From assembly GCA_030668875.1 (NCBI GenBank), contig DAOVER010000023.1:1-32000 (forward strand): DNA of 32,000 nt, given 5' to 3'. The position numbers and the translations under genes are program-made. How positions within the stretch are numbered: the first letter of the stretch is position 1; each line of letters starts with the position of its first letter. The stretch is from Candidatus Heimdallarchaeota archaeon (GTDB lineage Archaea; Asgardarchaeota; Heimdallarchaeia; Heimdallarchaeales; Heimdallarchaeaceae). This document shows positions 1 through 16,190 of this stretch, in pieces. Below the pieces are notes generated by a model that was given only the letters and a program-made list of their open reading frames with translations, had not been told where the DNA came from and made no database searches.

Positions 1-180
1 GACAAAGCTAGGTACATGTCGTGCTTAGAGGTCATGATATAGGGCGAAGATACTCTATACTCACTCTTAGTGGATACATCACGTATCCTCCTACCCCGTT
101 CGCACTACGTTTAGGTAGGGCTTTCGGATCGCTTTTTATCAGAATATTGTATGCGGCATTAACGTCAGCATTTATTAAGT
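1..180 (-). ncRNA. Candidate omegaRNA scaffold overlapping the tnpB 3' end
   Basis: Two stems in the last codons: CCTACC(90-95)/GGTAGG(114-119) and GGATAC(72-77)/GTATCC(83-88). TnpB omegaRNAs are known to derive from the element's right end. Boundaries are a guess. Confidence 0.4.
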
Positions 181-1291
181 GGCCTTGAGCAGAACGAAAT
201 AGCCCTCGTTTGATTCTTTTCCCTTTGTACCTTTTCCGTTCCTTGGGGAACTCATTATCCAGAAAACTGCTCTTGGAAGTGTATTGTTCAGGGATGGTTT
301 CCACTTTTATCCCTCGCTCAGCTCCTTTATATTTTAGCATATAGATGATTTTCAGGAAGGGGAGGGTAACGAACATCTGAGTGGTTTTCTTCCAGAAATG
401 TAATCCTTGTTTCCATAGCTCATTGTAGCCTATAATTACTTCATGGAGCCCTCGTTCGACCCACAAGTCAACCAGATACTTGGTTAATTTGTGGATAGCA
501 TCGTTTAGCTTCCTTCTCCACTTCTCCTTAAGTTTGTAGTAAGCTGGACCATACTTGAGTCTGTTCTTATTTTGCAGTTGTGCTCGCTGCTGCTGACTAT
601 ACTGTAGTTGTAGTTTCTTCTGTTCTTTCAAATAATATTGAGTAACGGACTTTATGCCTTTCCCTGCGTCTTTGATAACAATCGGTCTTCCTCCGAGGTT
701 ATCCACGAAAGCGGCAAGGTTGTCCATCCCTAGATCTATCGCTCCTTTTCTGAACATCTTCTTCCTAAGATTTGGGATACTCTTCAGATAAACAAGTTCA
801 AGGGTGTAGTGAGTTCTTCGAGGAATAACTCTTACTTCTCTTAGCTCTGTCTGAGCTGTTAGTCTTGTCTTGTAGGTATACTTCACTTTCTTCGGTAACA
901 CTAACCATCCATTGACAATACGTGCTTGTTGATTGGTAAAGATAGCTACCACTTCCCCATCCTTCTTTTTGTAGTTAGGTGGCTTAGGCATGGCAAAGAA
1001 CAATGTAGGATCCTTTTTCCACTCTTTTTTAGCTCGGAAATAGCTCTTCCAGCATCTAGAAAGAAGTTTGAGTGTTTGTTGTGCAACATGAGCTGGAAGG
1101 ATACGGTAACACTCCTCCTGTTTCAACTGTATGTCAAGATTATAGTAAAAGAGTAGTTTGCTTGTCTGCTTCAAAGAGTTTTTTATCAGAAAATTTGCTC
1201 GATTATAGAGATTTTTTGCTTGATGACAGATTCTGCTCAGTGCTGGATGATACGCCACTTCTATACGTTCTGCACGCAGTACCTTTGCCAT
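32..1291 (-). CDS. tnpB: TnpB RNA-guided endonuclease, IS200/IS605 family (IS1341-like, rearranged RuvC-II, no Zn finger)
   Basis: 419 aa. N-terminal 'LSRICHQAKNLYNRAN' and 'MPKPPNYKKKDG'; RuvC-I 'GAIDLGMDNL' (D186); 'VIIGYNELWKQ'; 'PEQYTSKSSFLD' (E335); RuvC-III 'INADVNAAYNI' (D376). Spot GC counts of the first two 60-nt lines are 43% and 50%, versus 28% for line 12661. Confidence 0.95.
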   Translation of the reverse strand: MAKVLRAERIEVAYHPALSRICHQAKNLYNRANFLIKNSLKQTSKLLFYYNLDIQLKQEECYRILPAHVAQQTLKLLSRCWKSYFRAKKEWKKDPTLFFAMPKPPNYKKKDGEVVAIFTNQQARIVNGWLVLPKKVKYTYKTRLTAQTELREVRVIPRRTHYTLELVYLKSIPNLRKKMFRKGAIDLGMDNLAAFVDNLGGRPIVIKDAGKGIKSVTQYYLKEQKKLQLQYSQQQRAQLQNKNRLKYGPAYYKLKEKWRRKLNDAIHKLTKYLVDLWVERGLHEVIIGYNELWKQGLHFWKKTTQMFVTLPFLKIIYMLKYKGAERGIKVETIPEQYTSKSSFLDNEFPKERKRYKGKRIKRGLFRSAQGHLINADVNAAYNILIKSDPKALPKRSANGVGGYVMYPLRVSIEYLRPIS

Positions 1292-1620: not shown

Positions 1621-4119
1621 TTGTACAAAAATAAGGTTAATGTGTTAATTTTTATTATACTGTTATGTTCTGTAACTACTTTAGTACAAATTAGTAGTTT
1701 TCCTACAGAGAATACTGATCTTCTGAAATTTTCTGTAGAATTTCAAGATGTAGAAATTAACGACCTTCCTGGTGAGCCACAGAATTGGACATGGGCTAAA
1801 GACCAAGGTCTTTGTACTGGAAATGGAGTAGAAAGCGATCCTTATATTATCGAAGACATTCTTTTTAATGGAACTGGTTTTTGCCTTAGTATTTTAAATT
1901 CTATAAAATACTTTATTATAAGAAATTGCACTATTAGTGGGAATAAAGGTCTCTTACTGTCTGATGTAACTAATGGACAAATTATTGAAAATAATATAAT
2001 ATTTAATGCCGGAGAAGGGATTAATATAGATACATGCAGTTCTCTCCTCGTTTCAGGAAACAATATAACTGATAATGACGCAGGGGTATTAATCAACGAC
2101 TGTTCTTTTACTTCTCTCTCGAATAACAACATAAGTAATAATAACGGAGAAGGGATTTATTTAGAAAATGCGAATAACAACATTATCATCTCAGAAAATG
2201 ACATAAAAAACAATGTGAAAGAAGGGATTAAGATAAATAAGAGTTATAACAACACCATCTGGGGAAACGAAATTTCTGACAATACTCTTGCAGGAGTACA
2301 CGTAAAAAGTCCACAATCAGTTTACAACCTGTTTTATGATAATTACTTTAGAAATAATAATCCTATTGTAAATGATGCTAATGGTGAAACCATCTGGAAT
2401 ACTACACTTATTGGTAATTATTGGGATGACTATGGTGGTGAAGATGCAAATGGTGATGGTATCGGAGATACTCCATATATTGTTCCAGGTACAGGTGGAA
2501 ATCAAGATTATTTACCAATATGGAGCTCTGTGGGGCCTATCACAATTAATGGAGCAGCAACTGGTGTTGGAGCTCATAATTGGACATGGGCAGCAAGTCA
2601 ATATTGGTGTAGTGGTTCTGGTTCTTTTGCTGATCCATATGTTATAGAAGATTTAGAGATAGATGCTCAGGGAACTGGAAGTTGTATTTCAATCACTAAT
2701 TCTAGAGTATATTTTTCAATTGAGAATTGCGTTGTAAGTGATGCAGGAACAGCTCTTACTGATGCAGGAATCTATTTATTTAATGTTACTAATGGAAATA
2801 TAGTCGAGAACGATTGTTCTAACAATGGTTATGCGGGAATATTTGTAGATGATAGTAACTATAACACTTTATCAGGAAACAATATTAAAGACAATTTATG
2901 TGGGATATATATTATTGGTTTTTGGAATGAAATTTCAGGAAATACTATAGATACCAATATAGATCAGGGTATTTTTATAGCGAGTGGTAGCCACAATAAT
3001 ACAGTGGATGGAAATACTGTGAAAAATAGTATTTATGGTATATTGGTAAGTAATACAGATGATAACACTATTTCAAATAATGAAATAAGCAGCAATTCTT
3101 ATGGAGCATACTTAGATAATTCAGATGATAACATTATTTCAGATAATGAAATAAGTAGCAATTCTTTATATGGGATATATATTGTACTGGGTAGTAACGG
3201 AAGTTTAGTTTATTCCAATTACTTTGTACTAAATGGAGAACATGCTGTTGATTATGGTTACCCCTCTTCAAATAATGTTTGGAATAGTTTGTTAATAGGT
3301 AATTATTGGGACAATTATACTGGAAGCGATGCTAACAATGACGGTATTGGTGATGATCCTCACGATTTTGGTACGGGGATAGATTACTTACCAATTTGGG
3401 ACGATGCAGCTCCAATAATTATAATAAATTCACCAAATCCTAGCGATGTATTTGGTCTCAGCGCACCATATTTTGATGTAACCATCAGTGAACCAAATTT
3501 GGATGAAATGTGGTATACTCTTGATAACGGATTACATAATCATACATTTGAAGAGAATGGAACAATTGACCAATCAGCCTGGGATGCAGCGCCTTCTGGT
3601 AGTATTACACTAGCGTTTTATGCTAGAGACATGATTGGAACTATTGGTTCTGCTGAGGTTATTATAATAAAAGACGTTGAAGCTCCAACTATTACAATCA
3701 ATACGCCTGATGCTGGTGATGAATTTGGCAGCGATGCACCAAGTTTTGACATAACTGTTACAGATGCTAATCTAGATACAGTATGGTTTACTCTCAATGG
3801 AGGTATTCCCTATTATATTGACTCTTTTAGCGGTACAATCAATCAAACAGCATGGTCAGCTTTAACCGAAGGAAATATTACTATCACTTTTTATGCCAAT
3901 GATAGCGCTGGAAATCTTGCATCTGAAGAAGTTAACATCATAAAAACCGCTGATACAGGACCTAATTTAACTTTAATCATCGTTCTTAGTACTACTCTTG
4001 GTGGAGCTGCTGTTGCTGCTGGAGTTATAGGGACATTAATGTATAAGGGGAAGATAAAAAAACCAGAATGGTTAAGGAAGATAAAAAAACCAGAATGGTT
4101 AGGAAGAAAAACGGATTAA
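1621..4119 (+). CDS. Secreted, C-terminally anchored surface protein: two NosD/CASH parallel beta-helix modules plus two Ig-like domains
   Basis: TTG start with GGTGA at 1611-1615; signal peptide; two modules each opening with 'NWTWA...G.G...DPY(I/V)IED' and closing with 'GNYWD.Y.G.DAN.DGIGD.P'; N/I-rich beta-helix rungs; two 'AP.I.IN.P...FG..AP.FD.T....NLD..W.TL..G' Ig-like repeats; C-terminal TM helix and basic tail. Confidence 0.88.
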   Translation: MYKNKVNVLIFIILLCSVTTLVQISSFPTENTDLLKFSVEFQDVEINDLPGEPQNWTWAKDQGLCTGNGVESDPYIIEDILFNGTGFCLSILNSIKYFIIRNCTISGNKGLLLSDVTNGQIIENNIIFNAGEGINIDTCSSLLVSGNNITDNDAGVLINDCSFTSLSNNNISNNNGEGIYLENANNNIIISENDIKNNVKEGIKINKSYNNTIWGNEISDNTLAGVHVKSPQSVYNLFYDNYFRNNNPIVNDANGETIWNTTLIGNYWDDYGGEDANGDGIGDTPYIVPGTGGNQDYLPIWSSVGPITINGAATGVGAHNWTWAASQYWCSGSGSFADPYVIEDLEIDAQGTGSCISITNSRVYFSIENCVVSDAGTALTDAGIYLFNVTNGNIVENDCSNNGYAGIFVDDSNYNTLSGNNIKDNLCGIYIIGFWNEISGNTIDTNIDQGIFIASGSHNNTVDGNTVKNSIYGILVSNTDDNTISNNEISSNSYGAYLDNSDDNIISDNEISSNSLYGIYIVLGSNGSLVYSNYFVLNGEHAVDYGYPSSNNVWNSLLIGNYWDNYTGSDANNDGIGDDPHDFGTGIDYLPIWDDAAPIIIINSPNPSDVFGLSAPYFDVTISEPNLDEMWYTLDNGLHNHTFEENGTIDQSAWDAAPSGSITLAFYARDMIGTIGSAEVIIIKDVEAPTITINTPDAGDEFGSDAPSFDITVTDANLDTVWFTLNGGIPYYIDSFSGTINQTAWSALTEGNITITFYANDSAGNLASEEVNIIKTADTGPNLTLIIVLSTTLGGAAVAAGVIGTLMYKGKIKKPEWLRKIKKPEWLGRKTD
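4051..4104 (+). repeat. 27-nt tandem duplication encoding KIKKPEWLR/KIKKPEWLG
   Basis: AAGATAAAAAAACCAGAATGGTTA occurs at 4051 and 4078. Confidence 0.95.
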
Positions 4120-4180: not shown

Positions 4181-4300
4181 TTATATTTTGATATGCAAGG
4201 TTATCCTAATTTCAGAAAATCTTTCAAATGTTTCATTATCTGCTACGAGGACTGTTATGCTATTTTCAAGTTGTTCTATTACCCCTGTTCTTCCTTCATG
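4181..4300 (-). pseudogene. Relic fragment of the longin domain of a TPR-longin paralog
   Basis: Minus strand reads HEGRTGVIEQLENSITVLVADNETF, versus HEGRAVIIEQQENIMAVLVADNETF in 6242..8254 (18/25 aa identical). DNA 4225-4300 vs 6385-6460 is 61/76 identical and ungapped. There is no start codon. Confidence 0.85.
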
Positions 4301-4307
4301 GGATCAT

Positions 4308-4339
4308 ATTGTGAATGAGTTACATTAAAATATGCTTTC
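4308..4339 (+). promoter_or_regulatory. Direct repeat copy 2; probable core promoter of the metalloprotease gene
   Basis: TAAAATATGCTTT (4326-4338) starts 28 nt before the ATG at 4354, the same spacing as upstream of taw1. Confidence 0.6.
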
Positions 4340-4353
4340 TGCATGTTTATAGT

Positions 4354-6234
4354 ATGAATAAGAAGCTGATTTCCTTCTCCATCTTTATGTTATTTTTCTC
4401 ATCCTTCGTAATTGTTGGAGAAACAAGTCTTACTCAAGAAAAAACAGATAAAATTTCTAGTTTACCTGATAATTTTGACACCAATCTAACGGTTTATGTT
4501 AGATTTCTAGGTTTTGATCAAGACATTATTGACGAAGATGCAATTGAAGATAAGCTTCCAAGTTATTTTACTAAATGGGATGTCAATTATGGAACAACTC
4601 AGCTTAATTTCAACTATGATTTTGAACACATGGATGATGTTTATGTTAATGGTTTGAAAAACTATATTCAAACAACTGCTATTAATGGTACAGGGGTAGG
4701 TTTTTCCCTGAATGTTACAAAACTCAATGAAGAGATCATTTCAGGTCAGAGATCAGATGTTTTTCTTCCAGAAGATGGATTAGTTGCAGATGCAGAAGAT
4801 GTTGAGAAGTTTATTTCGACTTTCATTCATAGCCCAGAATTAGAAAGGAGTGGATATACGCTCTATTTCCTTAATTTTTCGTCTTTTGATTCTCCTGATC
4901 ACTCTCTGGAACATTGGTACAATGTTGATAAGATTTCATTTGATACAAATGAAACAATCTCTCACTGGTATAGTGGATATGATGAGATTCCTTCTAGACC
5001 AACTTCAGGATGGGGAGGAAAACACCGATTTTGTTATCTTGACCTATCTTCTCGTTCCTGGTATTTTGATTGGTTGTTAACAGCTTGGACGGCTTTTTAT
5101 CCAGGATCTTTTAGTTATTATAATTATCCTGACATCGAAACTCTTATTCAAACACATAATCCCTATACTCCAGCTGGCCAAGAAATATTGACAACCTATA
5201 TTGCAGATTGGTTGTATTCATATCTAGGTAACGTATTTTCAGCTTATTATTCTCATTACCAGATTGGCGAATCATATTCACTACAAGTGAAAGTATTCGA
5301 TAATCTGACCAATAATGGGTTTACAACTGAAGAAATTGAATGGACAATTTCTGATAGCAGAATGTTCACACAATTAGAGAAAGATCTTCCTTGGATTGAC
5401 TGGGAAGTGAATGTGAATTATGTCCTATTAACTGATTATCCAGAACTTTATGATGAAATTGCCTCTTATGTTCACGAAGATGTAAATGGTATGTATGTGG
5501 AGGTGATGGAAGGTTTGTTCTATTATTTAAGCAATGAACTTGCGAACTACTTTGATTTTGATGCAGCTGATACTGTTCTCCCATGTTATTTCTTCCTAAC
5601 TAATGAAATAGGTTTCAGATACAATGGAATTTCATTTGCTGGACTAGGAGGAATGGGCTGGGAGATACTTCTTGGAACTCAGAATAGTATTTTCAAAGAT
5701 GCTGATCCTTCTCAACTCAGAAGAGGGTATTCAGCTGTTATGATCCATGAATTGGGTCATAGTCTTGGTTTACCTCACCCCCACGGTAGTACCTATGGTT
5801 GGGGATCATCATTCTTTCAAGACGTCATGAATTATTTTTCGTTCAGTGAAGAGAGTTTTAGTTCATTTAATCAAGATGGTTTGGCAAGAGCTCATTACAA
5901 ATATTTCTTCAAACAAACAACCGAAGAATTCGAAGACGCTTTAGAATTATATGAAAGTCAAGGTTCTCCTGTTAATTTAATTGGGTATTTAGACAAGGTT
6001 AATTCATATATCGAAATTTCTATCGATAATTATGTGAATATGGAATACATAGATGCAATAAACTCAACAAAAACAGCTCTTATTGAGATCGAAGATTTAC
6101 TCTACTACATTTTACACCCTGAAGAGTATACAGAAGAGCCCCTTCCGACTGATGAGACTACAATCTATTTCCTATTAACTATACTAGCATTAGTACCAAT
6201 GACTATATTGAGGAAAAAGAATAGAGAAAAGTAG
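4354..6234 (+). CDS. Secreted, C-terminally anchored zinc metalloprotease (metzincin-type)
   Basis: HEXXHXXGXXH 'HELGHSLGLPH' at 5746-5778 and Met-turn 'DVMNY' (ATG 5827). Signal peptide MNKKLISFSIFMLFFSS; C-terminal 'PTDETT' + TM + RKKNREK. The ORF track starts at 4315, but 4354 fits the signal peptide and promoter spacing better. Confidence 0.85.
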   Translation: MNKKLISFSIFMLFFSSFVIVGETSLTQEKTDKISSLPDNFDTNLTVYVRFLGFDQDIIDEDAIEDKLPSYFTKWDVNYGTTQLNFNYDFEHMDDVYVNGLKNYIQTTAINGTGVGFSLNVTKLNEEIISGQRSDVFLPEDGLVADAEDVEKFISTFIHSPELERSGYTLYFLNFSSFDSPDHSLEHWYNVDKISFDTNETISHWYSGYDEIPSRPTSGWGGKHRFCYLDLSSRSWYFDWLLTAWTAFYPGSFSYYNYPDIETLIQTHNPYTPAGQEILTTYIADWLYSYLGNVFSAYYSHYQIGESYSLQVKVFDNLTNNGFTTEEIEWTISDSRMFTQLEKDLPWIDWEVNVNYVLLTDYPELYDEIASYVHEDVNGMYVEVMEGLFYYLSNELANYFDFDAADTVLPCYFFLTNEIGFRYNGISFAGLGGMGWEILLGTQNSIFKDADPSQLRRGYSAVMIHELGHSLGLPHPHGSTYGWGSSFFQDVMNYFSFSEESFSSFNQDGLARAHYKYFFKQTTEEFEDALELYESQGSPVNLIGYLDKVNSYIEISIDNYVNMEYIDAINSTKTALIEIEDLLYYILHPEEYTEEPLPTDETTIYFLLTILALVPMTILRKKNREK

Positions 6235-6241
6235 TTTCTTT

Positions 6242-8254
6242 TTATTTTATTGTAAAAGGAGATTCAGAGAAAACATCATTAACGATAGGTTGAAACTCTT
6301 CTTGATCTATTGTCTTTATCGAAATATTATCTTTTATTTTTGTTACTGCTTCTTTCAAGAATTTTCTTACTTTTAACCTACACACAAATGTTTCATTATC
6401 TGCTACTAAAACTGCCATAATATTTTCTTGTTGTTCAATTATTACCGCTCTTCCTTCATGATTGATGCTTCGAAGTGTTTCAACTCCTTTTCCTAACACT
6501 TCCGACGAGAAATTTATTATTGCAGTGATTAATCCTGAAACTAGAAGATCATCCATTTCCTTTGTTTCTGTGAATTTGTGGGAATACAGGGGTAAACCTC
6601 CTTCATCTATAACAAGTAGAAGATACAGTACTATAGGTATTTTCTTGTGTGCTCCATAAGAAAATTTTCTTATTCTATTGAAGAGTCTCTTTGATCCTTT
6701 GAGTTCTTGAAGTAGAGAAGGTTTGTCTCTTAACCTTATTTTCAGTTCTTCTATTTTCTCATCCAGTCCAAGTTGTTCTGCAAAAGTTAATGCAATCTGC
6801 AGTTTTTCTTTTGCTCTTTTATTTAAATCCCTATATTGGTAATAGCTTGCTTTAATGATCATTGCATCTATATACAGAGGATGTTCAAGTTCTTGAGCGA
6901 CATTAAGAAGACTATCTATATAGTATAGAAACTTATCTGCAAATTCATTGTTTTCTGTGATTCTATACATCTCAAAGTAGCTTTCAGCAAGTTTCCCATA
7001 TGAATATACAATTCCTTCTAAGATAACCTGATTCTCAAAAAATTCTAACGCCCTTTCGAACTGTTCTACAGCGTCAGAAAGATTAACTTTTTTCTGGGAA
7101 TATAATCCCCTGTAGAAATAGAAATATGACATAGCGTTGAAATCAAACTGATCTTCTGCTAGCTGTAAGCCGAATTTTAATGCTTCACCATCATCTTTTT
7201 TGTTTAACAGTTTTAAATATCCATAAGTAATTTCTAGGAGAGCATAAATGAAACCATTTTCTTCATTTAGATTGTGAGCAGTTTCGTAATATTCTTCTGC
7301 TTTTTTGGAATCTTCATTTAGAAAGTATATCTCACCAATCTTTTCCAAAACTTGAATTTTTGTCGGTTTAAGCAAGTTACTAATTTTCAGTGTGTTTTTG
7401 TATATAACTAATGCTTCATTGAGTTTTCCGTTCATTTTTTCCTTAGTAGCGATATTCAACTGCATAATAACAAGCAGACGATCAGATTTTAGATTTTTTG
7501 CGAGATTAACACCTTTTTCTATATACTCAACAGCCTTTTTCATGTCGTACTCTTTCATTGAAATATTTGCAAGTAAATCATACAGTGAACAGAGCATACC
7601 TTCATTGTCGTAATTCTCTGCTCTCTTAACTGCACTTTCAATCCACAGGTCTTTTAGATTATCATCTGCTATTACATATGCAAAATTAACCAAATCACTC
7701 AATAAAGCATCAAGAATGAACGGGAATTTTTTAGAAAGGTCATCCATATTTAATAAATAACGTAGGATTTCATTGAGAGCTTTGTATCCAAATTCAGGTC
7801 GTTTTTCTATTTTTGCTGAAAATTCCTTTAGCGATAAAATCAGAAATTCTTTTTCTCTTGAATCCTCGTGCTCATTTACTATTTTCTCCACTTCGATTTT
7901 AAATTTCTTAAACTCATCAAAGTTAAACATATTTCTTAGAGAAAGAGCATGGAGAACTAGAAGGGATAAATTTCGCTTGTCTATTGTATCATTGAACTTA
8001 CTGTAATAATCAATAACTGAATCATATTCCTTACACCAATAACTAAGTAAAAAATATGTTAAGATAAGCATTTGATCTGTCTGATCTTCTAAAGCGACCT
8101 TTTTGGAAAAATAATTTTCCAAAGATTTTCTAACTATCTCCTCTTTTCCATTTGAACTTATGATTTTAGAGATTCTGTTGAAGAATTCACTTTTATCATC
8201 ACCAATATGTATTTCAACCTCATTTACAATAAAAGCAGGTAAATTAGTTTTCAT
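6242..8254 (-). CDS. TPR-repeat protein with C-terminal longin-like domain
   Basis: TPR helices such as 'VLEKIGEIYFLNEDSKKAEEYYETA'; C-terminal 'LLVIDEGGLPLYS...DDLLVSGLITAIINF...LRSINHEGRAVII...AVLVAD' with longin beta-beta-alpha-beta-beta-beta-alpha order. Confidence 0.8.
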   Translation of the reverse strand: MKTNLPAFIVNEVEIHIGDDKSEFFNRISKIISSNGKEEIVRKSLENYFSKKVALEDQTDQMLILTYFLLSYWCKEYDSVIDYYSKFNDTIDKRNLSLLVLHALSLRNMFNFDEFKKFKIEVEKIVNEHEDSREKEFLILSLKEFSAKIEKRPEFGYKALNEILRYLLNMDDLSKKFPFILDALLSDLVNFAYVIADDNLKDLWIESAVKRAENYDNEGMLCSLYDLLANISMKEYDMKKAVEYIEKGVNLAKNLKSDRLLVIMQLNIATKEKMNGKLNEALVIYKNTLKISNLLKPTKIQVLEKIGEIYFLNEDSKKAEEYYETAHNLNEENGFIYALLEITYGYLKLLNKKDDGEALKFGLQLAEDQFDFNAMSYFYFYRGLYSQKKVNLSDAVEQFERALEFFENQVILEGIVYSYGKLAESYFEMYRITENNEFADKFLYYIDSLLNVAQELEHPLYIDAMIIKASYYQYRDLNKRAKEKLQIALTFAEQLGLDEKIEELKIRLRDKPSLLQELKGSKRLFNRIRKFSYGAHKKIPIVLYLLLVIDEGGLPLYSHKFTETKEMDDLLVSGLITAIINFSSEVLGKGVETLRSINHEGRAVIIEQQENIMAVLVADNETFVCRLKVRKFLKEAVTKIKDNISIKTIDQEEFQPIVNDVFSESPFTIK

Positions 8255-8271
8255 TTGATAACCTTCTAAAT

Positions 8272-10362
8272 TTACTGTTCCTTAAAGTTTGTTTGAATAA
8301 TATCACTATAAACAAGTTTTGGTCCAAACAGCAATTCTACTTCCTTATCAATATAAGTGCTAAGTTCTAGAGACAAATCCCCATAATATTGTTTAGGAAT
8401 TTCAGTTTTAGACATTTTATCTGTTAATTGATGTATTTTTCTTCTGAGTGAAAATGAGTCATGTGCTGAAATGGCAACGGAACTGAAGCCTTTAGGATGA
8501 GCCTCTATTATTATTTTATAATTACCATAGGTTATCACCAGTACTTGACTCTTCTGTTTTTCGAATAATTCTGAAAGCATGTCTCTGATTGCAACAATAA
8601 AACCTCCGAATAATAGTTGATCTTTTACTGTACGTTTTGATATAACGAAGGATCTTAGTGGTATTCCAGATCTGTGTAATATAATAAGGGCTAAGGGTGC
8701 TATTTCAATTTGAACATGAGGTTTCTGCATATAACGTAAACCAATGTCTTCTAAGTTATAAACATCTGTTCTGAATGGTTCATTGACCCACTCATAACTT
8801 GAGAGTTCCTCGCGATTCTCAAGACTGCTTAAATCTTCTAGATACCTGTCAACCATTTTCATTAAGTGTTTATTTTTGTGATGCTGGAGTAAGTCACGAG
8901 CTTTCTGTAAACTATTGAATGAATTAGAATAGTCTTGTTTAATTGCGAAAATTTTTCCTTCGAGAAGACGCAAAGCTACCTGTTCTTTAATTAATTTGCT
9001 TTCAATGAAATAAGGTAATATGTGGCTGATGTTATGAATAGCTAAATCTAGTTCATCAATATTCTTTTCCACATCATATTTATTGATATTTAGTAAAAGT
9101 GTATTCATCAAAATTTTTGCAGACAATTCACCTCTTCCTTGACGATCTGCCATTCTTAATGCTTTTGAGAATAGTTCGCTTGCCTTACCGAAATTAAGTT
9201 TCTTCACGTTATTTAAACCCTTAAGAAATAGTATGTAAGCTTCAATTATTGACGAAGGTGAGCCTCTGATTTCTTCTTCCAGATTTTTTATGAGAATCTC
9301 AAAATCACTTACTCTTCCTGTTTGAAGGTATAGTTCGGTCAGTATACAATATTGGTAGGTTTCCTTTAAGTTTAGTTTTTCTACTATGTTTAGAGCTTCC
9401 TGATATTTTTCAATCGCTTCTTCATAATTCCCTCTTTCAATATCAATGTTCCCTAAACTTTTAATGGAAAGAGCAGTAAAACGGTTTTCTTCTAAATTCC
9501 TGAAAGTTTCTAATATTTCAAGGTAAATTGATTCTGCTTCATCTAACTTGCCTTGTATGACACATATTGTACCGAGATTCCCTTTAGTTGCAGATAGTAA
9601 ACTCTCATTTCCTGTTTCTTTGAAAAGAGCAATAGCTTTATTGGAATATTTAATTGAATCATCAATTTTTCCCGAGTCTCTTTGTAAAAGAGCCATTAAA
9701 TAATAAAACGAACCTAGATGGTTTCTTTCGCCTAAATCTGTAGCAATTTGTAATGCGACACTTATTTTATTCTCAAGTTTAATCTTCTCGTCTGAAAATC
9801 GATTAAGAATGAAATTATCTTTATGTGCTTCTAGAAGAATATCGTTAATTATTGGTTTATCTTCTGCAGATAGTTTAGGAGAAGTGAGAGAATCTTCAAA
9901 TAACTCGTTAAGATAAATTTTACATTGTTCATGATTTCCAAGGTTAAGATACCCATTTGCAATAGATCTTAAACTATGTAACTTGAAACAGAGACGAATA
10001 CCCTCTTTATTGTATATCACAGAAGCTTTCTTGATTGCCTCTTCACTCAGTCCTCTTCTAAGCAACAATCTAATTTTCCATAAAGCAAAACCTTGATATG
10101 AGAATTCTTCTTCAAGAGCATCAAGAGTGTCGTAATCTGAATTAAAAAATAGTATTTTACCGAGAGCAAAAACTAGAAAATCAGAGGGTTTAGGAAGATT
10201 CGGGAACAAATCTATTACATAATCACGCACTTTAACTAGTGAATCATCAATTTGGAAGCTTTTCTCTTGGTTTTTAAGGATATTTTGTTCTTCCGAAGAC
10301 ATTTTTGGAATATAAATAGCAAACTCCTTTGGAAAACCAACTTTGCTCTTCTTATCTTTCAT
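8272..10362 (-). CDS. TPR-repeat protein with C-terminal longin-like domain
   Basis: About 40-aa TPR repeats 'KGNLGTICVIQGKLDEAESIY' and 'KSLGNIDIERGNYEEAIEKYQEAL'; C-terminal 'LIILHRSGIPLRS...DQLLFGGFIVAIRDML'. ATG at 10362 preferred; a TTG alternative lies at 10371. Confidence 0.8.
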   Translation of the reverse strand: MKDKKSKVGFPKEFAIYIPKMSSEEQNILKNQEKSFQIDDSLVKVRDYVIDLFPNLPKPSDFLVFALGKILFFNSDYDTLDALEEEFSYQGFALWKIRLLLRRGLSEEAIKKASVIYNKEGIRLCFKLHSLRSIANGYLNLGNHEQCKIYLNELFEDSLTSPKLSAEDKPIINDILLEAHKDNFILNRFSDEKIKLENKISVALQIATDLGERNHLGSFYYLMALLQRDSGKIDDSIKYSNKAIALFKETGNESLLSATKGNLGTICVIQGKLDEAESIYLEILETFRNLEENRFTALSIKSLGNIDIERGNYEEAIEKYQEALNIVEKLNLKETYQYCILTELYLQTGRVSDFEILIKNLEEEIRGSPSSIIEAYILFLKGLNNVKKLNFGKASELFSKALRMADRQGRGELSAKILMNTLLLNINKYDVEKNIDELDLAIHNISHILPYFIESKLIKEQVALRLLEGKIFAIKQDYSNSFNSLQKARDLLQHHKNKHLMKMVDRYLEDLSSLENREELSSYEWVNEPFRTDVYNLEDIGLRYMQKPHVQIEIAPLALIILHRSGIPLRSFVISKRTVKDQLLFGGFIVAIRDMLSELFEKQKSQVLVITYGNYKIIIEAHPKGFSSVAISAHDSFSLRRKIHQLTDKMSKTEIPKQYYGDLSLELSTYIDKEVELLFGPKLVYSDIIQTNFKEQ

Positions 10363-10443
10363 CTCTTTCAAATAGATTATACATTATTGAATAATAAATA
10401 TATCTTCTTTCCGAATCTACTAATTAAAAATTCAAAAGGGATT

Positions 10444-12480
10444 TTAACTTCTAATACCAAATAAGTTCCTTACCAAAGAATCTATTTCAAAAGCTAGTGT
10501 TTCTGCCAAATCACCTTTGAATTTTTCTTTAAATAATCCCTTAACTGATAGGTGTTTGACCAATCTATGCATTTTTCGTCTTAACATATAGCTGTCTCTT
10601 AAAGCAATAACTACCACAGAGAAGACATTCGAATAAAACTCGATTAGTAGTTTGTATTGTCCATGATCTATCGAGAGAACTCCATGTTTCTGATCCATAA
10701 ACAACTCGTTCATCAAGTGCCTGATGGCAGATACAAAACCTCCAAAAAGAAGATCATCTGTAACACGAACTTCTTCTGATAGATATGTTCGTATTGGAAT
10801 TCCACTAGAATGGAATAATAGAACTGCAATTGGTTTTTCTCCCTTTGGCGCGGCTAATTTCTTCGATTCTTTACGAAGTATTGTTGTAATAGAGTCAATA
10901 TCTTCGATGAATTCTACTAACCCTGTATCTATTATTGTATCAACATCACTTTCAATTGCGTTTTTCACTAGATTTATTTTCTCTTTATAATTTTCTACTA
11001 ATAATGGTGTATAGGTTCTTGCTAGTTTTTCTCCACTCTTTAACAGAAAGAGAGCTGTTTCAAAATCTAAAACTATTATTTTGATTTTTGATCTTATATA
11101 ATATATCAAAGAAAGAGATTCATATTTTGCTTTCTCTTCCAGGTAGGTTATAATGTCTTCCAGACACTTATCAGCTTCGATTAGCTCTTCTAAATTAAGT
11201 GTTAGTGTATACTTCTTGAGGAATACAACTGATAACAACACTAGCGTTTTAGAACTTAATATCTCGTTTCCTAATTCATCTGATAGAAGCATAGCATTTT
11301 GTAGGAAATCTTGAGCATTACCATAATTGTTTTTCTTATATTCAAGAAATCCTAAGAGGAATAAGAAAAACGCTTTCTGTGTGGGAGATAGTTGCTTTTT
11401 CCACTCTTTTTCTATTTGTGCCAAAATTGATTCTACTAGAGAAGCATCATTTAAGTAGAGAAGAATTTCAGCATATTTCATTTGCATAAACAGGTCCTTA
11501 AATTTCCCTTTATCTATAATCTGCAGAACCTTTTCCATTTCAGTTTTAGCTTTCTCAAACTCTTCCTTAGCAAAATGAACATCCGCAAAACTAGCATGAA
11601 GAATATAAAGTGATCTATAATCATTTTTCCATTCTTTTACAATAGAATAACTCTTGTTATACCAGAACATGGCTTCATCTAGATGACCCATTTGTAAATA
11701 AATGTCACCAATACTTCCTGCCACATGACCTAGTAATCTATCCATTTTGATTTCTTTTGCAATTGCTTCACTTTTTAGAAATATCTGGTGAGCGATTTGA
11801 AAACTTCCTCTCTCTAACTCGATTATACCAATTGTATTGTTAATTTGTGCTTGTACAATTCTATCATTCAAAGCTTGATTCAAGTTTAAACATTCTTTTG
11901 TTTTATCTCTTGCCATTGAGAGAATGTAAGTGGAACGAAGGTAGTAAGCGTCCATTTCCAACATATATATTTGAATCAATTTGTATAAATCACCACTATA
12001 TTCAATTTCTTGAGGATATCGAACAAGTAAAAAGTTGAAACAATTTTCTCTATTCTCAAGATATTTTGAGAAATTTTGTGATAGAAAACCTTGAATTGCC
12101 TCTACATAAAAAGTAAATGCGAGTAAAATGGAATGACTTAGTTTTTCTGATAATTCTAGAATTAGAGAGTTATATTGTTCAACTTTTCCTTCATATATGA
12201 GTATTAGGGCATACCACAACCCCATCCCAGTAGTTTGTTTTTTCATATAAAGGGAAGTAATTTCGCTGAATTTTGCTCTGTGGTAAAGTATTCTTCCCAG
12301 AAGAAAACAAAATGAGTCTGTAGTTTCTTTTTTCTCATTTCGTATATTTCTCATTGCATTTTCAATAACTTCAAGATCAGCATTAGCTGTTAGCTTGTCA
12401 GATTTCAGTATCCTCTCCTTTTCATCATCTGATAAAGTGGGAAATATTGAAAGTATTTCTGGTGGGAGGACACTTTTCAT
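10444..12480 (-). CDS. TPR-repeat protein with C-terminal longin-like domain
   Basis: TPRs 'NNTIGIIELERGSFQIAHQIF' and 'AGSIGDIYLQMGHLDEAMFWY'; C-terminal 'VLLFHSSGIPIRT...DDLLFGGFVSAIRHLM'; GGTGA RBS upstream (CTCACC on the + strand). Confidence 0.8.
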   Translation of the reverse strand: MKSVLPPEILSIFPTLSDDEKERILKSDKLTANADLEVIENAMRNIRNEKKETTDSFCFLLGRILYHRAKFSEITSLYMKKQTTGMGLWYALILIYEGKVEQYNSLILELSEKLSHSILLAFTFYVEAIQGFLSQNFSKYLENRENCFNFLLVRYPQEIEYSGDLYKLIQIYMLEMDAYYLRSTYILSMARDKTKECLNLNQALNDRIVQAQINNTIGIIELERGSFQIAHQIFLKSEAIAKEIKMDRLLGHVAGSIGDIYLQMGHLDEAMFWYNKSYSIVKEWKNDYRSLYILHASFADVHFAKEEFEKAKTEMEKVLQIIDKGKFKDLFMQMKYAEILLYLNDASLVESILAQIEKEWKKQLSPTQKAFFLFLLGFLEYKKNNYGNAQDFLQNAMLLSDELGNEILSSKTLVLLSVVFLKKYTLTLNLEELIEADKCLEDIITYLEEKAKYESLSLIYYIRSKIKIIVLDFETALFLLKSGEKLARTYTPLLVENYKEKINLVKNAIESDVDTIIDTGLVEFIEDIDSITTILRKESKKLAAPKGEKPIAVLLFHSSGIPIRTYLSEEVRVTDDLLFGGFVSAIRHLMNELFMDQKHGVLSIDHGQYKLLIEFYSNVFSVVVIALRDSYMLRRKMHRLVKHLSVKGLFKEKFKGDLAETLAFEIDSLVRNLFGIRS

Positions 12481-12614: not shown

Positions 12615-14633
12615 ATGGCACCTAGTTCCATGAAATACCAACTTCAGAGTATTCTTAATAGACTCAATAAGTTGGGAATTTCTGAAAATGAATCTAAATC
12701 ATTGCTATTGAAACTCTATATCCTCAAAAAATATGAGCTTCTATCAGAAAAACATAAAGAAAATGATTTTGTATCTCTTGAACAACTCATTAAAGAAGGA
12801 GTCCCATATATTTTTCATTTCTATCAAAAAATGGAGAGTTTTTTCGTTTCCAAAGTTTTGATATCAAAGGATATAATAGAGTTAATATTGAATATAGATA
12901 CCATTGAATCAACCCATGATTTCTTTTCCATTTTACAAGCAGATGCTAAACAAAAGGAAATTGGGCAGTATTTTACTTCTAAGAAAACAATTAATAAAAT
13001 TACCAACGAAATATTTTCTGATAAACTCACATCAAATGGGATGCATTCAGTAATTGATTTTTCTGCAGGGTTAGGCGATTTCATAAACCCCTTAATGAAA
13101 AAGACTGAACTCACCATCTATGCACTTGAATTGGATAAGCTTTCGTATGAGTATTGTATCTTTAGTTTAATCTTTAATCCAAAATTATCAAAACAGAGAA
13201 AATGTTCTCTCTTATTGACAATAAGGAATGGAGATGCAATTTCAGGTTTCGATGAGAAAGTTTTTTCGGATTTGTGTAAGAACATTAAAGCAAAAAAGTT
13301 GTTGCGAGAGTATTTAGCTTTAAGACATAATTTAGTCTATAAGACAAATTTGTTCCTTGAAGAAGACATTATCAAAGTTTTTTCGATTAGAAAACAAATA
13401 GGGAATATAGATAAGAGGTTCAAGAAATTTAATTGGTTCATTGATTTTCCTGAAAAATTTCTAGATTATGAAATGAATTTTACTGAGGAGAATTACTTTG
13501 ATTTTATCGTTGGGAACCCTCCTTGGATAATTTATGGCTCGTTCTTGAAGAAGGAGTATCTATCAATATTGTCCTCTACACCCTTCTCGAGGTATTTATA
13601 CGGAAAATATAACTTTTCACTTCCATTTTTGATTCTTGCCCTACGATTAACGAAGAAGAAGGGAGCTTTAGTCCTTCCTCAAGGAATAGTTTCTGAATCT
13701 TATGGAAAGAAAGTAAGGGAGAAATTAATAGAAGAGAAACTGCTTACAAAAATAGAGTTGTGTGAATCCAAACTATTCGAGAGAGTAGTAAATGATTATT
13801 GTGTAATCTATTGGAATAAAGAGAATAATGATGACACTTTCCAAATACAGGACAACAAAAATCAGAAAACTATTCAAGTTTCTTTTGCTTCTATAGTACA
13901 TTCCCATTACAAAATACCACTATTACCTACTAAATATTCTGCTCTAATCAAGAAGATAAGCTCAAAATCAGTTTTACTTAGAGACATTATATTTGTAAGA
14001 AGGGGATTGACTCTAACTAAGAAGTATCAGCAATCCTATTCAGAAGTTGATAATAAAAACTGTAACATTGAACAAAAAAGGCTCATAAAACACAATGCCT
14101 TCAAATCACAGAAGAAAGAGGGAGTAATGAATTTTCTGGTATTCTACGATGGTGACAAATTTGTTTATGATCGAGAATTATTAGGGGCACCTGGAGATTT
14201 CTCTCTTTTTGAAAGAAAAAAGATTATTCGAAGGAATCGTGGAAGAAAGTGGTATATAGGGTTAGATATGTCAAAGGAAATCTACGTTAATGATATTTTT
14301 GACATAATATACTCAAAAGAAGAGACAGTCTCCTTAAAAGCTCTGTTTGGCTATTTATCTTCATCATTAGTTCAGTACCTAGCAGAGTATTTTATTCAAA
14401 GAGATATTACTTCTAATGTTGTTAGAGAATTACCATTTCCAAACTTCAGTTCGAGTGATCTATTAGTTTTGGATCAATTAGTGGGTCAATGGTTAAATTC
14501 AACTAAGAGTGAGGAAGAGTTTCTGAAAATGAGAAGAGAGATAGACAAAATAGTATACCAAATTTATGATTTGAACAAGGAAGAATCAGATTTGGTTAAT
14601 TCAAGCAGCAAATATAATTGGAAGTATGAATAA
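12615..14633 (+). CDS. Amino-DNA methyltransferase (N6-A/N4-C, gamma class, Eco57I/TaqI-like) with C-terminal target-recognition domain; no nuclease domain evident
   Basis: 'IGQYFTSK'; motif I variant 'VIDFSAGLGDF'; motif IV 'FDFIVGNPPW'; TaqI_C-like tail 'LFGYLSSSLVQY...VRELPFP...IDKIVYQIYDL'. Confidence 0.85.
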   Translation: MAPSSMKYQLQSILNRLNKLGISENESKSLLLKLYILKKYELLSEKHKENDFVSLEQLIKEGVPYIFHFYQKMESFFVSKVLISKDIIELILNIDTIESTHDFFSILQADAKQKEIGQYFTSKKTINKITNEIFSDKLTSNGMHSVIDFSAGLGDFINPLMKKTELTIYALELDKLSYEYCIFSLIFNPKLSKQRKCSLLLTIRNGDAISGFDEKVFSDLCKNIKAKKLLREYLALRHNLVYKTNLFLEEDIIKVFSIRKQIGNIDKRFKKFNWFIDFPEKFLDYEMNFTEENYFDFIVGNPPWIIYGSFLKKEYLSILSSTPFSRYLYGKYNFSLPFLILALRLTKKKGALVLPQGIVSESYGKKVREKLIEEKLLTKIELCESKLFERVVNDYCVIYWNKENNDDTFQIQDNKNQKTIQVSFASIVHSHYKIPLLPTKYSALIKKISSKSVLLRDIIFVRRGLTLTKKYQQSYSEVDNKNCNIEQKRLIKHNAFKSQKKEGVMNFLVFYDGDKFVYDRELLGAPGDFSLFERKKIIRRNRGRKWYIGLDMSKEIYVNDIFDIIYSKEETVSLKALFGYLSSSLVQYLAEYFIQRDITSNVVRELPFPNFSSSDLLVLDQLVGQWLNSTKSEEEFLKMRREIDKIVYQIYDLNKEESDLVNSSSKYNWKYE

Positions 14634-14766: not shown

Positions 14767-15633
14767 ATGCGTAGACCAGTGAAAGAATACTTTTTAGAGA
14801 ATGAAGCTGATAAGATTTTTGTTAATCTAGAAAATAGAGCCAAACTACGAGTGTTATTTTTTTCAGCTAAAAATTCCTCTGATCTAAGTATGAACATCAT
14901 CTATTATTCAGGTTATAATTCCTATCTTTTTGCATGGTTTGAATCAGTTGAAGTACTTCGAAAGAATCACAACATTTACTTCATTGAAACAAGAGAGAAA
15001 GAATTTTCTTTCTTACCAGAAAATGATAAAAGATATGACATTTATAGTCTTGCAGAAGATTTTAACCTAGTATTAAAAGAACTAGATCTTCCTTTAGAAA
15101 CATGTGTTTTTACAGGTTCATCTATTGCATCAAATGCTGTTCTTTATGCAATGAGTAGTTATTCAATCAAGCCTTTCGTTGCTGTTCTAGCAACTCCTCA
15201 AATAGAGATGAGAGCAAATCCTCTAGCATCAAAATGGGCTAGAGCAGTTCCTCGTTGGTTTGCTATTTCCTTAAAACCGCTAACAAGATTAATTAGCAGA
15301 TTTGTTTTTCGAAAAGATAAGAAACACTATCAGAGCTTTTCACATGCAATAAGCAGAATGTTTTCAAAATATCATTTTGAATGGTTGAAAACAGCACCAA
15401 TAATGGATGATTATTACATGGAAAATGATAGTTTCGACAATATTTCATCCCCTTTAGTTATTATTTGTCCTGAAGATGATCCAGTACATGATAAGTTACT
15501 TATTCAAAAAATCAAAGAGTTTTTACCAAAAGCTAAAATTCAGAATGTTCCATTAAATTCAGATACACACAATGAAACCCTTGCAGAGATCATCGACAAT
15601 GCGTTAACTAAATTAAAAGAAAGCAATCTTTGA
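14767..15633 (+). CDS. Alpha/beta-hydrolase fold protein
   Basis: 'IIYYSGY'; 'IYFIETRE'; nucleophile elbow 'FTGSSIAS'; 'LVIICPEDDPV'; late His 'DTHNE'. Confidence 0.7.
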   Translation: MRRPVKEYFLENEADKIFVNLENRAKLRVLFFSAKNSSDLSMNIIYYSGYNSYLFAWFESVEVLRKNHNIYFIETREKEFSFLPENDKRYDIYSLAEDFNLVLKELDLPLETCVFTGSSIASNAVLYAMSSYSIKPFVAVLATPQIEMRANPLASKWARAVPRWFAISLKPLTRLISRFVFRKDKKHYQSFSHAISRMFSKYHFEWLKTAPIMDDYYMENDSFDNISSPLVIICPEDDPVHDKLLIQKIKEFLPKAKIQNVPLNSDTHNETLAEIIDNALTKLKESNL

Positions 15634-15671
15634 TTGCTTTTTATATTAATTTAATCAATATACTTCTGAGA

Positions 15672-16190
15672 ATGACTATCAGTAACTTGGAACTACAATC
15701 TTTTACACACGAATTGGACGAAATTGATACTAAAAGTATTTATGATAACCTTTACTTTGTTGCTTCATTATTTGATGAGATATCAGGACCTTTGGTCATT
15801 TACAACAATTCCCCCTTAGATGCACACATTATAGAAAAACTGAATCTCAGAGTTTTTAGTTTTCTCATGCAAGGGTCAGAATTTGGTCCTGACAATTTCG
15901 CAAAACTTCGAGGTATAGTCCATATTCCTCAAACAAATTACTATACCTCTGCAATCGATATCTTGGTTAGGAAAAATGAATCTAATAGCTTAACTACTGT
16001 TTTTGTTCCTCTGTTAATATATATGATATTTCCAAAAGAAGATATTGTGGTATATGCAAAAATTATTGATGAAATTGAGCAATTTATCTCAAGATACTGG
16101 GAAAGAGGAATGATAGGATCACCTGATATTAGAGATGTGGAGCTTCTAATAAGAAAATTACAAAGAAGAATATATTCTATCAATAAATAA
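15672..16190 (+). CDS. Small stand-alone uDENN/longin-like protein
   Basis: 'YFVASLFDEISGPLVIYNNSP' matches the F(D/S)xxxGP beta-hairpin signature of uDENN-type longins and is followed by a helix and strands. ATG at 15672 preferred; the track's TTG at 15630 overlaps the hydrolase stop. Confidence 0.6.
   Translation: MTISNLELQSFTHELDEIDTKSIYDNLYFVASLFDEISGPLVIYNNSPLDAHIIEKLNLRVFSFLMQGSEFGPDNFAKLRGIVHIPQTNYYTSAIDILVRKNESNSLTTVFVPLLIYMIFPKEDIVVYAKIIDEIEQFISRYWERGMIGSPDIRDVELLIRKLQRRIYSINK

Follow-up and report, generated by a model that had tools for sequence, protein, structure and literature searches.

Tetratricopeptide repeat proteins with a C-terminal longin-type domain in a tandem array of a Candidatus Heimdallarchaeota archaeon and across the Asgard archaea

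Introduction

Eukaryotic regulators of small GTPases repeatedly use longin and roadblock domains as docking platforms, and the expansion of these domains in Asgard archaea is a main argument that the control of trafficking arose before the eukaryotes. These domains dimerise through strand β3 and helix α1, and the dimer binds a GTPase on its single-helix α1 face, as in MglB, the TRAPP core, Mon1-Ccz1 and Ragulator (Levine et al. 2013, PMC3747258). In the longin topology, two helices stand at the C-terminus and none at the N-terminus (Levine et al. 2013, PMC3747258; Tran et al. 2024, PMC10933270). The Asgard longin/roadblock expansion is documented by Klinger 2016 (as cited in PMC4917890), and Liu et al. 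2021 give 130 Roadblock/longin Asgard clusters of orthologous genes (asCOGs). Here, we analyse a window of 32,000 nucleotides from the genome of a Candidatus Heimdallarchaeota archaeon (GCA_030668875.1, contig DAOVER010000023.1, positions 1 to 32,000 of the forward strand), in which four genes encode proteins (P0001 to P0004; Table 1) with a tetratricopeptide repeat (TPR) solenoid followed by a single C-terminal domain of the predicted longin fold.

The window forms the first 32 kb of a 56-kb contig in a genome of 3.23 Mb (99 contigs, ~32% G+C). Judged by the orthologues of its TPR-longin genes, the nearest closed genomes are those of Candidatus Heimdallarchaeum aukensis and H. endolithica, and close orthologues are labelled Candidatus Heimdallarchaeaceae. 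We find that TPR-longin proteins are a real, widespread and under-annotated architecture within the known Asgard longin expansion, and that two of the window's genes, those of P0003 and P0002, are an old tandem pair.

The C-terminal domain is predicted to adopt the longin fold

The isolated C-terminal domain of P0001 (residues 540-670) was modelled with AlphaFold2 (AF2) from an alignment of the four paralogues. The model, with a predicted local distance difference test (pLDDT) of 74, has strands at 4-11 and 16-21, a helix at 30-50, strands at 55-60, 63-70 and 73-79, and helices at 84-104 and 116-123, i.e., the order ββ-α-βββ-α-α. The same order recurs in the full-length AF2 model, where a five-stranded meander carries one helix on one face and the two C-terminal helices on the other, and an N-terminal helix is absent. 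A VIA-align structural search against 48,161 representative chains, whose matches span essentially the whole domain, returned synbindin (Z 14.1; 121 residues aligned with a root mean square deviation of 2.5), Sec22 and the VAMP7 longin (Z 13.4 each), sedlin (Z 12.9), AP-3 sigma (Z 12.8), a chain of the CPLANE complex (Z 12.2), the solved Lokiarchaeota Roadblock-Longin dimer (PDB identifier 8yqg; Z 11.2), MglB (Z 10.3) and Mon1-Ccz1 entries (Z 8-9). The top PDB matches found by Foldseek are zeta-COP, VAMP7, sigma-adaptins, Sec22 and TSET tstD. A first-pass annotation of the window had described the C-terminal domain as longin-like; AF2, Foldseek and VIA-align agree on this, and on these models the domain, of about 125 residues, is a longin fold. 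The modelled structure alone picks no longin subfamily; the Mon1-Ccz1 entries rank below the TRAPP, SNARE and sigma longins.

Sequence comparison indicates that the four window proteins are deeply diverged paralogues. In a full-length alignment the other three are 19-25% identical to P0001, and BLASTP over the full length recognises a single pair, P0002 and P0003 (26% identity, E 2e-44), with P0001 going undetected against P0003 or P0004. The shared C-terminal pattern reported in the first-pass annotation is nevertheless borne out by 12 residues that are invariant in all four proteins (G553, P555, D568, L570, L571, G574, A578, I579, E585, E607, V658 and F662 in P0001 numbering). Among the 3866 open reading frames of the genome, a hidden Markov model (HMM) built from P0002-type domains alone recovers P0004 (9e-10) and P0001 (4e-9), and one built from P0001 orthologues alone recovers P0004 (6e-15), P0002 (1e-7) and P0003 (3e-7). 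Since such clade-restricted HMMs recover the other window copies, the C-terminal domains are homologous beyond chance, and the argument for this is not circular.

Among Pfam families, the isolated domain of P0001 matches Fuz_longin_1 (PF19036; FUZ, MON1, HPS1) with an E-value of 1.5e-4 and 22.4 bits against a cut-off of 26.1, and Intu_longin_1 with an E-value of 3e-3; the domains of P0002 to P0004 have no Pfam match at E<=10. When 111 C-terminal domains of the wider family were scanned one by one at E<=1, Fuz_longin_1 was matched by 41 (best E 3e-7) and Intu_longin_1 by 12, and no other Pfam family was matched by more than three, the number reached by both Sybindin and Robl_LC7. From the relation of score to E-value in the same search, the best Fuz_longin_1 match should exceed the cut-off, and several P0001 orthologues carry a precomputed PF19036 match. 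Two family profiles searched against the PDB sequences retrieved only Roadblock/LC7 chains, marginally (E 0.006 with profile A3 and 0.1 with profile A8), and no Mon1, Fuzzy, TRAPP or adaptor chain; NCBIfam gave generic TPR models for the proteins and no model for the isolated domain. Thus, a first longin of the Mon1/Fuzzy type is the best-supported assignment by sequence, yet a weak one. The earlier suggestion of a likeness to the first longin of Mon1/Ccz1/Fuzzy/Inturned holds insofar as these are the only recurrent Pfam matches of the family; it does not carry over to the window proteins, where such matches are sub-threshold or absent, and the structural ranking does not favour Mon1/Fuzzy. 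As whole proteins, P0001 to P0004 are unlike Mon1/Fuzzy in architecture, given that the P0001 model has one longin and not three.

A TPR solenoid, a linker and one longin

The full-length AF2 model of P0001 (alignment of 27 orthologues and paralogues; pLDDT 85, predicted template modelling score (pTM) 0.82) comprises about 27 helices over residues 7-509, a linker at 513-540 and a single longin at 543-662. The long TPR solenoid of the first-pass annotation is confirmed by this helical region and by TPR_12, which scores 33.3, 67.8, 45.5 and 43.7 bits in P0001 to P0004, respectively, above the Pfam cut-off of 30.1 in all four. The proteins therefore belong to both the TPR class and the longin fold class, and in the modelled anatomy about 510 residues form a superhelical TPR solenoid, which a flexible linker of about 30 residues joins to one C-terminal longin. 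A common 'linker helix' had also been proposed before the C-terminal domain, but its motif (around Y430 of P0001) is part of the solenoid, some 110 residues ahead of the longin, at the helix-turn-helix formed by helices 412-433 and 436-455; the actual linker of P0001 is modelled as a low-confidence coil. No signal peptide, membrane span, NTPase or enzymatic domain was seen in P0001 to P0004.

The best PDB matches of the solenoid are the peptide-binding TPR superhelices of LGN/Pins, subunits of the APC/C, OGT/SPINDLY and Tom70/71. Over its full length, P0001 is matched by an AlphaFold DB cluster representative of 741 residues with a template modelling (TM) score of 0.72, and by an ESM Atlas cluster (100% Archaea; commonest phylum Promethearchaeota, 62 members) with a TM score of 0.77. 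P0001 and its H. aukensis orthologue are 30% identical in residues 1-200; the figure rises to 45% in the TPR core and to 58% in the longin. On this sequence comparison the longin evolves most slowly and the N-terminal third of the solenoid fastest, and because conservation climbs from the N- to the C-terminus among P0001 orthologues, the protein combines a constant C-terminal module with a variable arm.

The Foldseek matches to zeta-COP, sigma-adaptins and TSET tstD, the sizes of the two parts (a solenoid of about 510 and a longin of about 125 residues), and the conservation of a paralogous tandem pair (see below) fit a fused proto-adaptor, in which an alpha-solenoid and a sigma/zeta-like longin would correspond to one large-plus-small half of an AP/COPI-F/TSET heterotetramer and the tandem pair to its two halves. 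However, the solenoid is made of TPRs and is not of the adaptin HEAT/ARM type, no adaptor small chain recurs among the Pfam matches against 41 domains matching Fuz_longin_1, and TRAPP and SNARE longins rank equal to or above sigma subunits in VIA-align. We regard this reading as highly improbable.

TPR-longin proteins are abundant across the Asgard archaea

An HMM search of the genome, which converged in two rounds, found 29 open reading frames with the domain. The layout of TPRs with a C-terminal longin is present in nine of them, viz., the four in the window and C23_71256, C85_4808, C88_8637, C29_107722 and C47_42876, so that the paralogue family proposed at first pass extends over the genome. 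Three of the domain-bearing frames encode an Arf-like GTPase followed by the domain, a Rag-like layout, and several are stand-alone proteins of about 150 residues.

Beyond this genome, a profile of 12 sequences searched against 1.84 billion cluster representatives gave 4353 matches at E<=1e-3 and 776 at E<=1e-10. More than 400 residues precede the C-terminal domain in 114 of 162 family members (the top matches together with the genome's own copies), and the long members match TPR_12 in 70 out of 70 cases and TPR_MalT in 68 out of 70. In a sample of the phylum, 140 of 150 Asgard genomes, including all 72 of high quality, have a match at E<=1e-8; each of these has 1-26 matches, mostly in open frames of 640-750 codons. 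Family members come from metagenome-assembled genomes of Heimdallarchaeaceae, Kariarchaeaceae, Hodarchaeales, Promethearchaeota and Thorarchaeota. Those examined are named, without exception, 'tetratricopeptide repeat protein', 'MalT-like TPR' or 'hypothetical' in public databases. The TPR-longin form is thus among the most abundant longin architectures of the phylum, yet the longin is missing from public annotation. The literature search found no description of a TPR-longin architecture, of its pan-Asgard abundance or of its Mon1/Fuzzy-type affinity, and an earlier listing in the asCOG supplementary tables of Liu et al. is possible; it likewise found no archaeal tri-longin protein and no reported Asgard counterpart of a first longin of the Rab7 exchange factor type.

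Two unusual forms were seen among the relatives. In P0053 (2171 residues, from a Logan contig), the domain occurs three times, at about 669-800, 1175-1300 and 1680-1806; this protein may have come from read-through or fusion within a tandem array. In several others (G045:C97, G080:C78, G068:C69, G115:C152 and G003:C40, among others), the longin match is interrupted by one in-frame TGA or TAA; these copies are probably pseudogenes or sequencing errors.

The tandem array is old

The three adjacent, co-oriented genes of 670-700 codons and the fourth at 28174 listed in the first-pass annotation were all found as open reading frames, on the minus strand throughout. The start of the P0001 gene lies only 17 nt past the stop codon of the P0002 gene; therefore, these two genes are probably co-transcribed, on a single transcript. 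The spacer between the P0003 and P0002 genes is 72 nt long and AT-rich, and this paralogue pair is probably co-transcribed as well. No RNA dataset was listed as containing the array sequence; the DNA datasets listed are marine-sediment metagenomes, possibly including the source sample.

In a tree of 79 C-terminal domains (142 columns), the deep forks of which are weak, the four window copies fall into four separate clades, each with orthologues in other genomes. The P0003-type and P0002-type clades are sisters (99 in the Shimodaira-Hasegawa-like approximate likelihood ratio test), and P0004 sits in a different clade, well supported, that includes orthologues from another genus. At six loci in four Heimdallarchaeaceae genera (the window, L038, L041, L042, L043 and L046), a P0003-type and a P0002-type gene stand in tandem in this same order, with an intergenic gap of 65-80 nt in L042, L043 and L046; the P0003 orthologues of the four genera are without exception upstream of a P0002-type gene. 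A P0001-type gene stands beside the pair only in the genus of the window. The P0001 orthologue of H. aukensis is located elsewhere and adjoins a gene for an 856-residue TPR protein, in which the domain HMM detects no longin at 1e-5; therefore, the H. aukensis array is not a longin pair.

On these comparisons, the family expands by tandem duplication across the phylum, whereas the trio of the window represents an old, maintained set. The earlier view of an expanding family is accordingly right for the family, which is large, duplicates in tandem and forms young arrays in some lineages, but not for the window copies, which are old, diverged paralogues with orthologues in other genera. A young tandem expansion is seen at L040 (G049:C33:12500-23600) in another Asgard family, where five near-identical TPR-longin genes of 651-663 codons lie head to tail.

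A possible GTPase-docking platform

In the genome, one longin subfamily is common to the TPR fusions, the stand-alone proteins and the Arf/Rag-like GTPase fusions. Clade-specific HMMs from which GTPase-fused sequences had been left out recover two Arf-like GTPase fusions, C71_33956 (2e-7) and C47_3980 (7e-5), by their C-terminal domains, and in the ESM Atlas the domain adjoins Asgard clusters fused to Arf/Ras, with a TM score of 0.78. The genome encodes about 40 small GTPases. On its contig C71 (G000; 33956-35845) two Arf/Rag-like GTPase genes are adjacent, one of which (329 codons) has the same longin-type C-terminal domain, an arrangement similar to that of the Rag-like operon pair known from MK-D1.

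With the G-x-P turn set aside, the invariant residues are concentrated on α1 (D568, L570, L571, G574, A578, I579 and E585). Since they run along this helix, the domain most likely acts, by analogy with characterised longins, as a dimeric longin platform. Engagement of a GTPase and recognition of cargo are proposed by analogy with the fold and with family precedent only. The interpretation that we prefer, and to which we give an even chance, is that the proteins are cytoplasmic two-module scaffolds, with a longin-dimer platform for GTPase docking and a client-binding TPR arm. In such a scaffold, the longin would pair with another longin or roadblock domain through the usual β3/α1 interface, the candidate partners being a second copy of itself, the product of the neighbouring paralogue (P0003 with P0002), a stand-alone longin or the C-terminal domain of a Rag-like GTPase. 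One of the roughly 40 small GTPases would dock on the single-helix face of the dimer, and the variable TPR arm would bind a client protein or peptide, which would thus be coupled to the state of the GTPase. The platform may serve as an exchange factor, as a helper of a GTPase-activating protein (GAP) or as a passive tether, among which the data do not distinguish.

Several observations weigh against such a docking platform. None of the nine TPR-longin genes of the genome has a small-GTPase gene within 20 kb, and gene context thus lends no support. The first-pass annotation had noted that no GTPase gene is visible in the window, and this holds for the whole 56-kb contig, where no Ras or Arf match was found; Asgard longin/roadblock genes are reported to be generally not operon-linked to GTPases (Tran et al. 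2024, PMC10933270). Among the 12 domains, as among the 111, there is no invariant arginine or other candidate catalytic residue, and the longin match in Pfam stays under the cut-off for P0001 and is lacking for P0002 to P0004. Longins also act independently of GTPases, e.g., in SNAREs and in the sigma and mu subunits of coat adaptors (PMC3747258).

In an alternative reading, the proteins are plain TPR scaffolds that organise an assembly of another kind, such as a chaperone, a proteolytic complex or an envelope machine, and the longin would be an oligomerisation or autoinhibitory module that works without a GTPase. Besides the absence of GTPases from every TPR-longin neighbourhood, there is the precedent of SNARE longins, which fold back on their own helix and function without GTPases (PMC3747258); the solenoid is like those of general peptide-binding TPR scaffolds (LGN/Pins, APC/C subunits, OGT and Tom70), and the pTM of 0.82 of the full-length model permits a fixed contact between longin and TPRs. 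However, GTPases are also present in most complexes that contain longin or roadblock domains (PMC3747258), members of the same subfamily are fused to Arf/Rag-like GTPases in this genome, and conservation is concentrated on α1, the helix of the dimer and GTPase face. A plain scaffold is in our view possible, if doubtful.

A more specific form of the docking platform concerns the old tandem pair. The P0003/P0002 pair is conserved and probably co-transcribed, which suggests that the two products heterodimerise. A complex prediction for the longin domains of P0002 and P0003 with their linkers, each entered as an alignment of orthologues, scored 0.30 against a mark of 0.32, without controls, and weighs neither for nor against binding. 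The pair, or perhaps the trio, would in this form join through Mon1/Ccz1-like longins and serve an Asgard Rab/Arf/Rag-like GTPase as a platform for exchange or docking, and the two TPR arms would select clients; we consider this unlikely. If true, it would provide a prokaryotic, single-longin forerunner of Mon1-Ccz1, the TRAPP core and Ragulator, i.e., of GTPase regulators that are paralogous heterodimers, and the shift from homodimer to paralogous heterodimer would already have taken place within Heimdallarchaeia.

Gene layout of the window

The coordinates of the array and of the other features of the window are given in Table 1.

Table 1. Positions of the TPR-longin genes, the relic and other features in the 32,000-nt window
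Feature	Position	Strand	Description
TnpB gene	32-1291		
NosD/beta-helix surface-protein gene	1621-4119		
Direct repeats	4049-4101		Two perfect 26-nt repeats, 27 nt apart, at the 3' end of the NosD/beta-helix gene and directly upstream of the longin relic
Relic of a fifth copy	4225-4300	minus	76 nt, non-coding; flanked by stop codons; P0001-type longin, β3-β5 part only
Protein with metalloprotease motif	4315-6234		639 aa; N-terminal hydrophobic segment, HELGHSLGLPH zinc-metalloprotease motif, C-terminal hydrophobic tail; Pfam M10/M66 matches weak
P0001	6242-8254	minus	670 aa; longin ~6245-6637; AF2 full-length model
P0002	8272-10371	minus	699 aa from TTG (ATG three codons in); longin ~8281-8703
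P0003	10444-12480	minus	678 aa; first gene of the tandem trio; longin ~10447-10839; TPR_12 and TPR_2 above Pfam threshold
Eco57I-type N6 DNA methylase	12615-14633		TaqI-like specificity domain; divergent from the trio
186-aa open reading frame	15630-16190		No Pfam match at E<=1 beyond noise; missed by the iterated longin HMM of the genome
591-aa protein	20768-22543		Family unassigned; weak TPR-S (sensor TPR) match, E 1e-3
Aldehyde:ferredoxin oxidoreductase	22597-24411		
P0004	28174-30267	minus	697 aa; unlinked to the trio; longin ~28177-28572
Aldehyde:ferredoxin oxidoreductase	30362-31891		Read from an internal TTG; true start probably further upstream, near the window end

The relic, which the first-pass annotation had located near 4181, aligns without gaps at the nucleotide level to positions 6385-6460, the β3-β5 stretch of the P0001 gene, and its translation between the stop codons reads HEGRTGVIEQLENSITVLVADNETF. 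A 625-residue orthologue of the protein with the metalloprotease motif is a conserved neighbour of the trio in the related contigs L038 and L039. The Eco57I-type methylase is a neighbour there too, beside a TnpB (IS605 OrfB) gene. The two aldehyde:ferredoxin oxidoreductase paralogues are 6 kb apart, with the P0004 gene between them.

The nearby DNA methylase and TnpB genes are among the points that would fit a diversifying sensor of the MalT/STAND type, possibly acting in defence, in which the TPR arm would sense a ligand or a protein of foreign origin and the longin would be a small signalling or ligand-binding module comparable to PAS/GAF domains. The frequent TPR_MalT matches (68 of 70 family members), the fast-evolving N-terminal solenoid, the young tandem arrays of some lineages, such as the five near-identical copies of L040, and the in-frame stops of some relatives, read as turnover, agree with such a sensor. 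However, the proteins have no NTPase, nuclease or other effector domain, PADLOC gives a generic TPR model only, and the window copies are old orthologous lineages rather than genes of fast turnover. A sensor role is quite improbable on this evidence.

Comparison with known systems

The tri-longin Rab exchange factors (Mon1/Fuzzy/HPS1, PF19036; Ccz1/Inturned/HPS4, PF19031) share the longin topology with the TPR-longin proteins and provide the family's only recurrent Pfam matches, and the TPR-longin paralogue pair that is kept side by side is reminiscent of obligate heterodimers of the Mon1-Ccz1 type. A G-x-P-h-Y-S turn between β1 and β2 is conserved in the TPR-longin family, and a G-x-P-h-Y-S turn is also found in Mon1. 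Unlike the tri-longin factors, the TPR-longin proteins have one longin, which is C-terminal and follows a solenoid of 510 residues, and a Rab partner and exchange activity could be assigned to them by analogy only. Membership of the tri-longin exchange factors is ruled out by the single longin (543-662) in place of three consecutive ones.

With MglB, Ragulator (LAMTOR) and the C-terminal roadblock platforms of Rag GTPases, the TPR-longin proteins would share the proposed logic of a dimeric platform, and a family profile weakly matches Roadblock/LC7 chains in the PDB (E 0.006). Roadblocks have an N-terminal helix, unlike the TPR-longin domain, which has two C-terminal helices and none at its N-terminus. 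Membership of the Roadblock/LC7 (MglB-type) family is ruled out, as residues 529-542 ahead of β1 are coil, two helices follow β5, and Robl_LC7 is matched by three of the 111 domains.

The GAP longins (folliculin, NPRL2 and SMCR8/C9orf72) and their Heimdallarchaeial look-alikes (PMC12290439) are similar in the longin fold, in a conserved Gly and Pro before β2 and in their occurrence in Heimdallarchaeia. Folliculin, NPRL2 and SMCR8 have an adjacent G-P before β2 and an arginine finger (PMC12290439). The turn of the TPR-longin domain reads G-[LI]-P, and neither the 12 nor the 111 domains share an invariant arginine, which rules out membership of this group.

The closest setting is the Asgard longin/roadblock expansion itself, with which the TPR-longin proteins share the phylum, the superfamily, the absence of operon linkage to GTPases and the match to 8yqg (Z 11.2), and which comprises many architectures, including GTPase fusions. 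This known expansion, with its promiscuous fusions, lowers the surprise of a TPR-longin combination. Unlike the Asgard longin architectures described so far, the TPR-longin form is not named in the literature searched. With Lokiarchaeial and Heimdallarchaeial strains now cultured, the family offers baits with which to learn which Asgard GTPases have partners and which proteins the TPR arms recruit.

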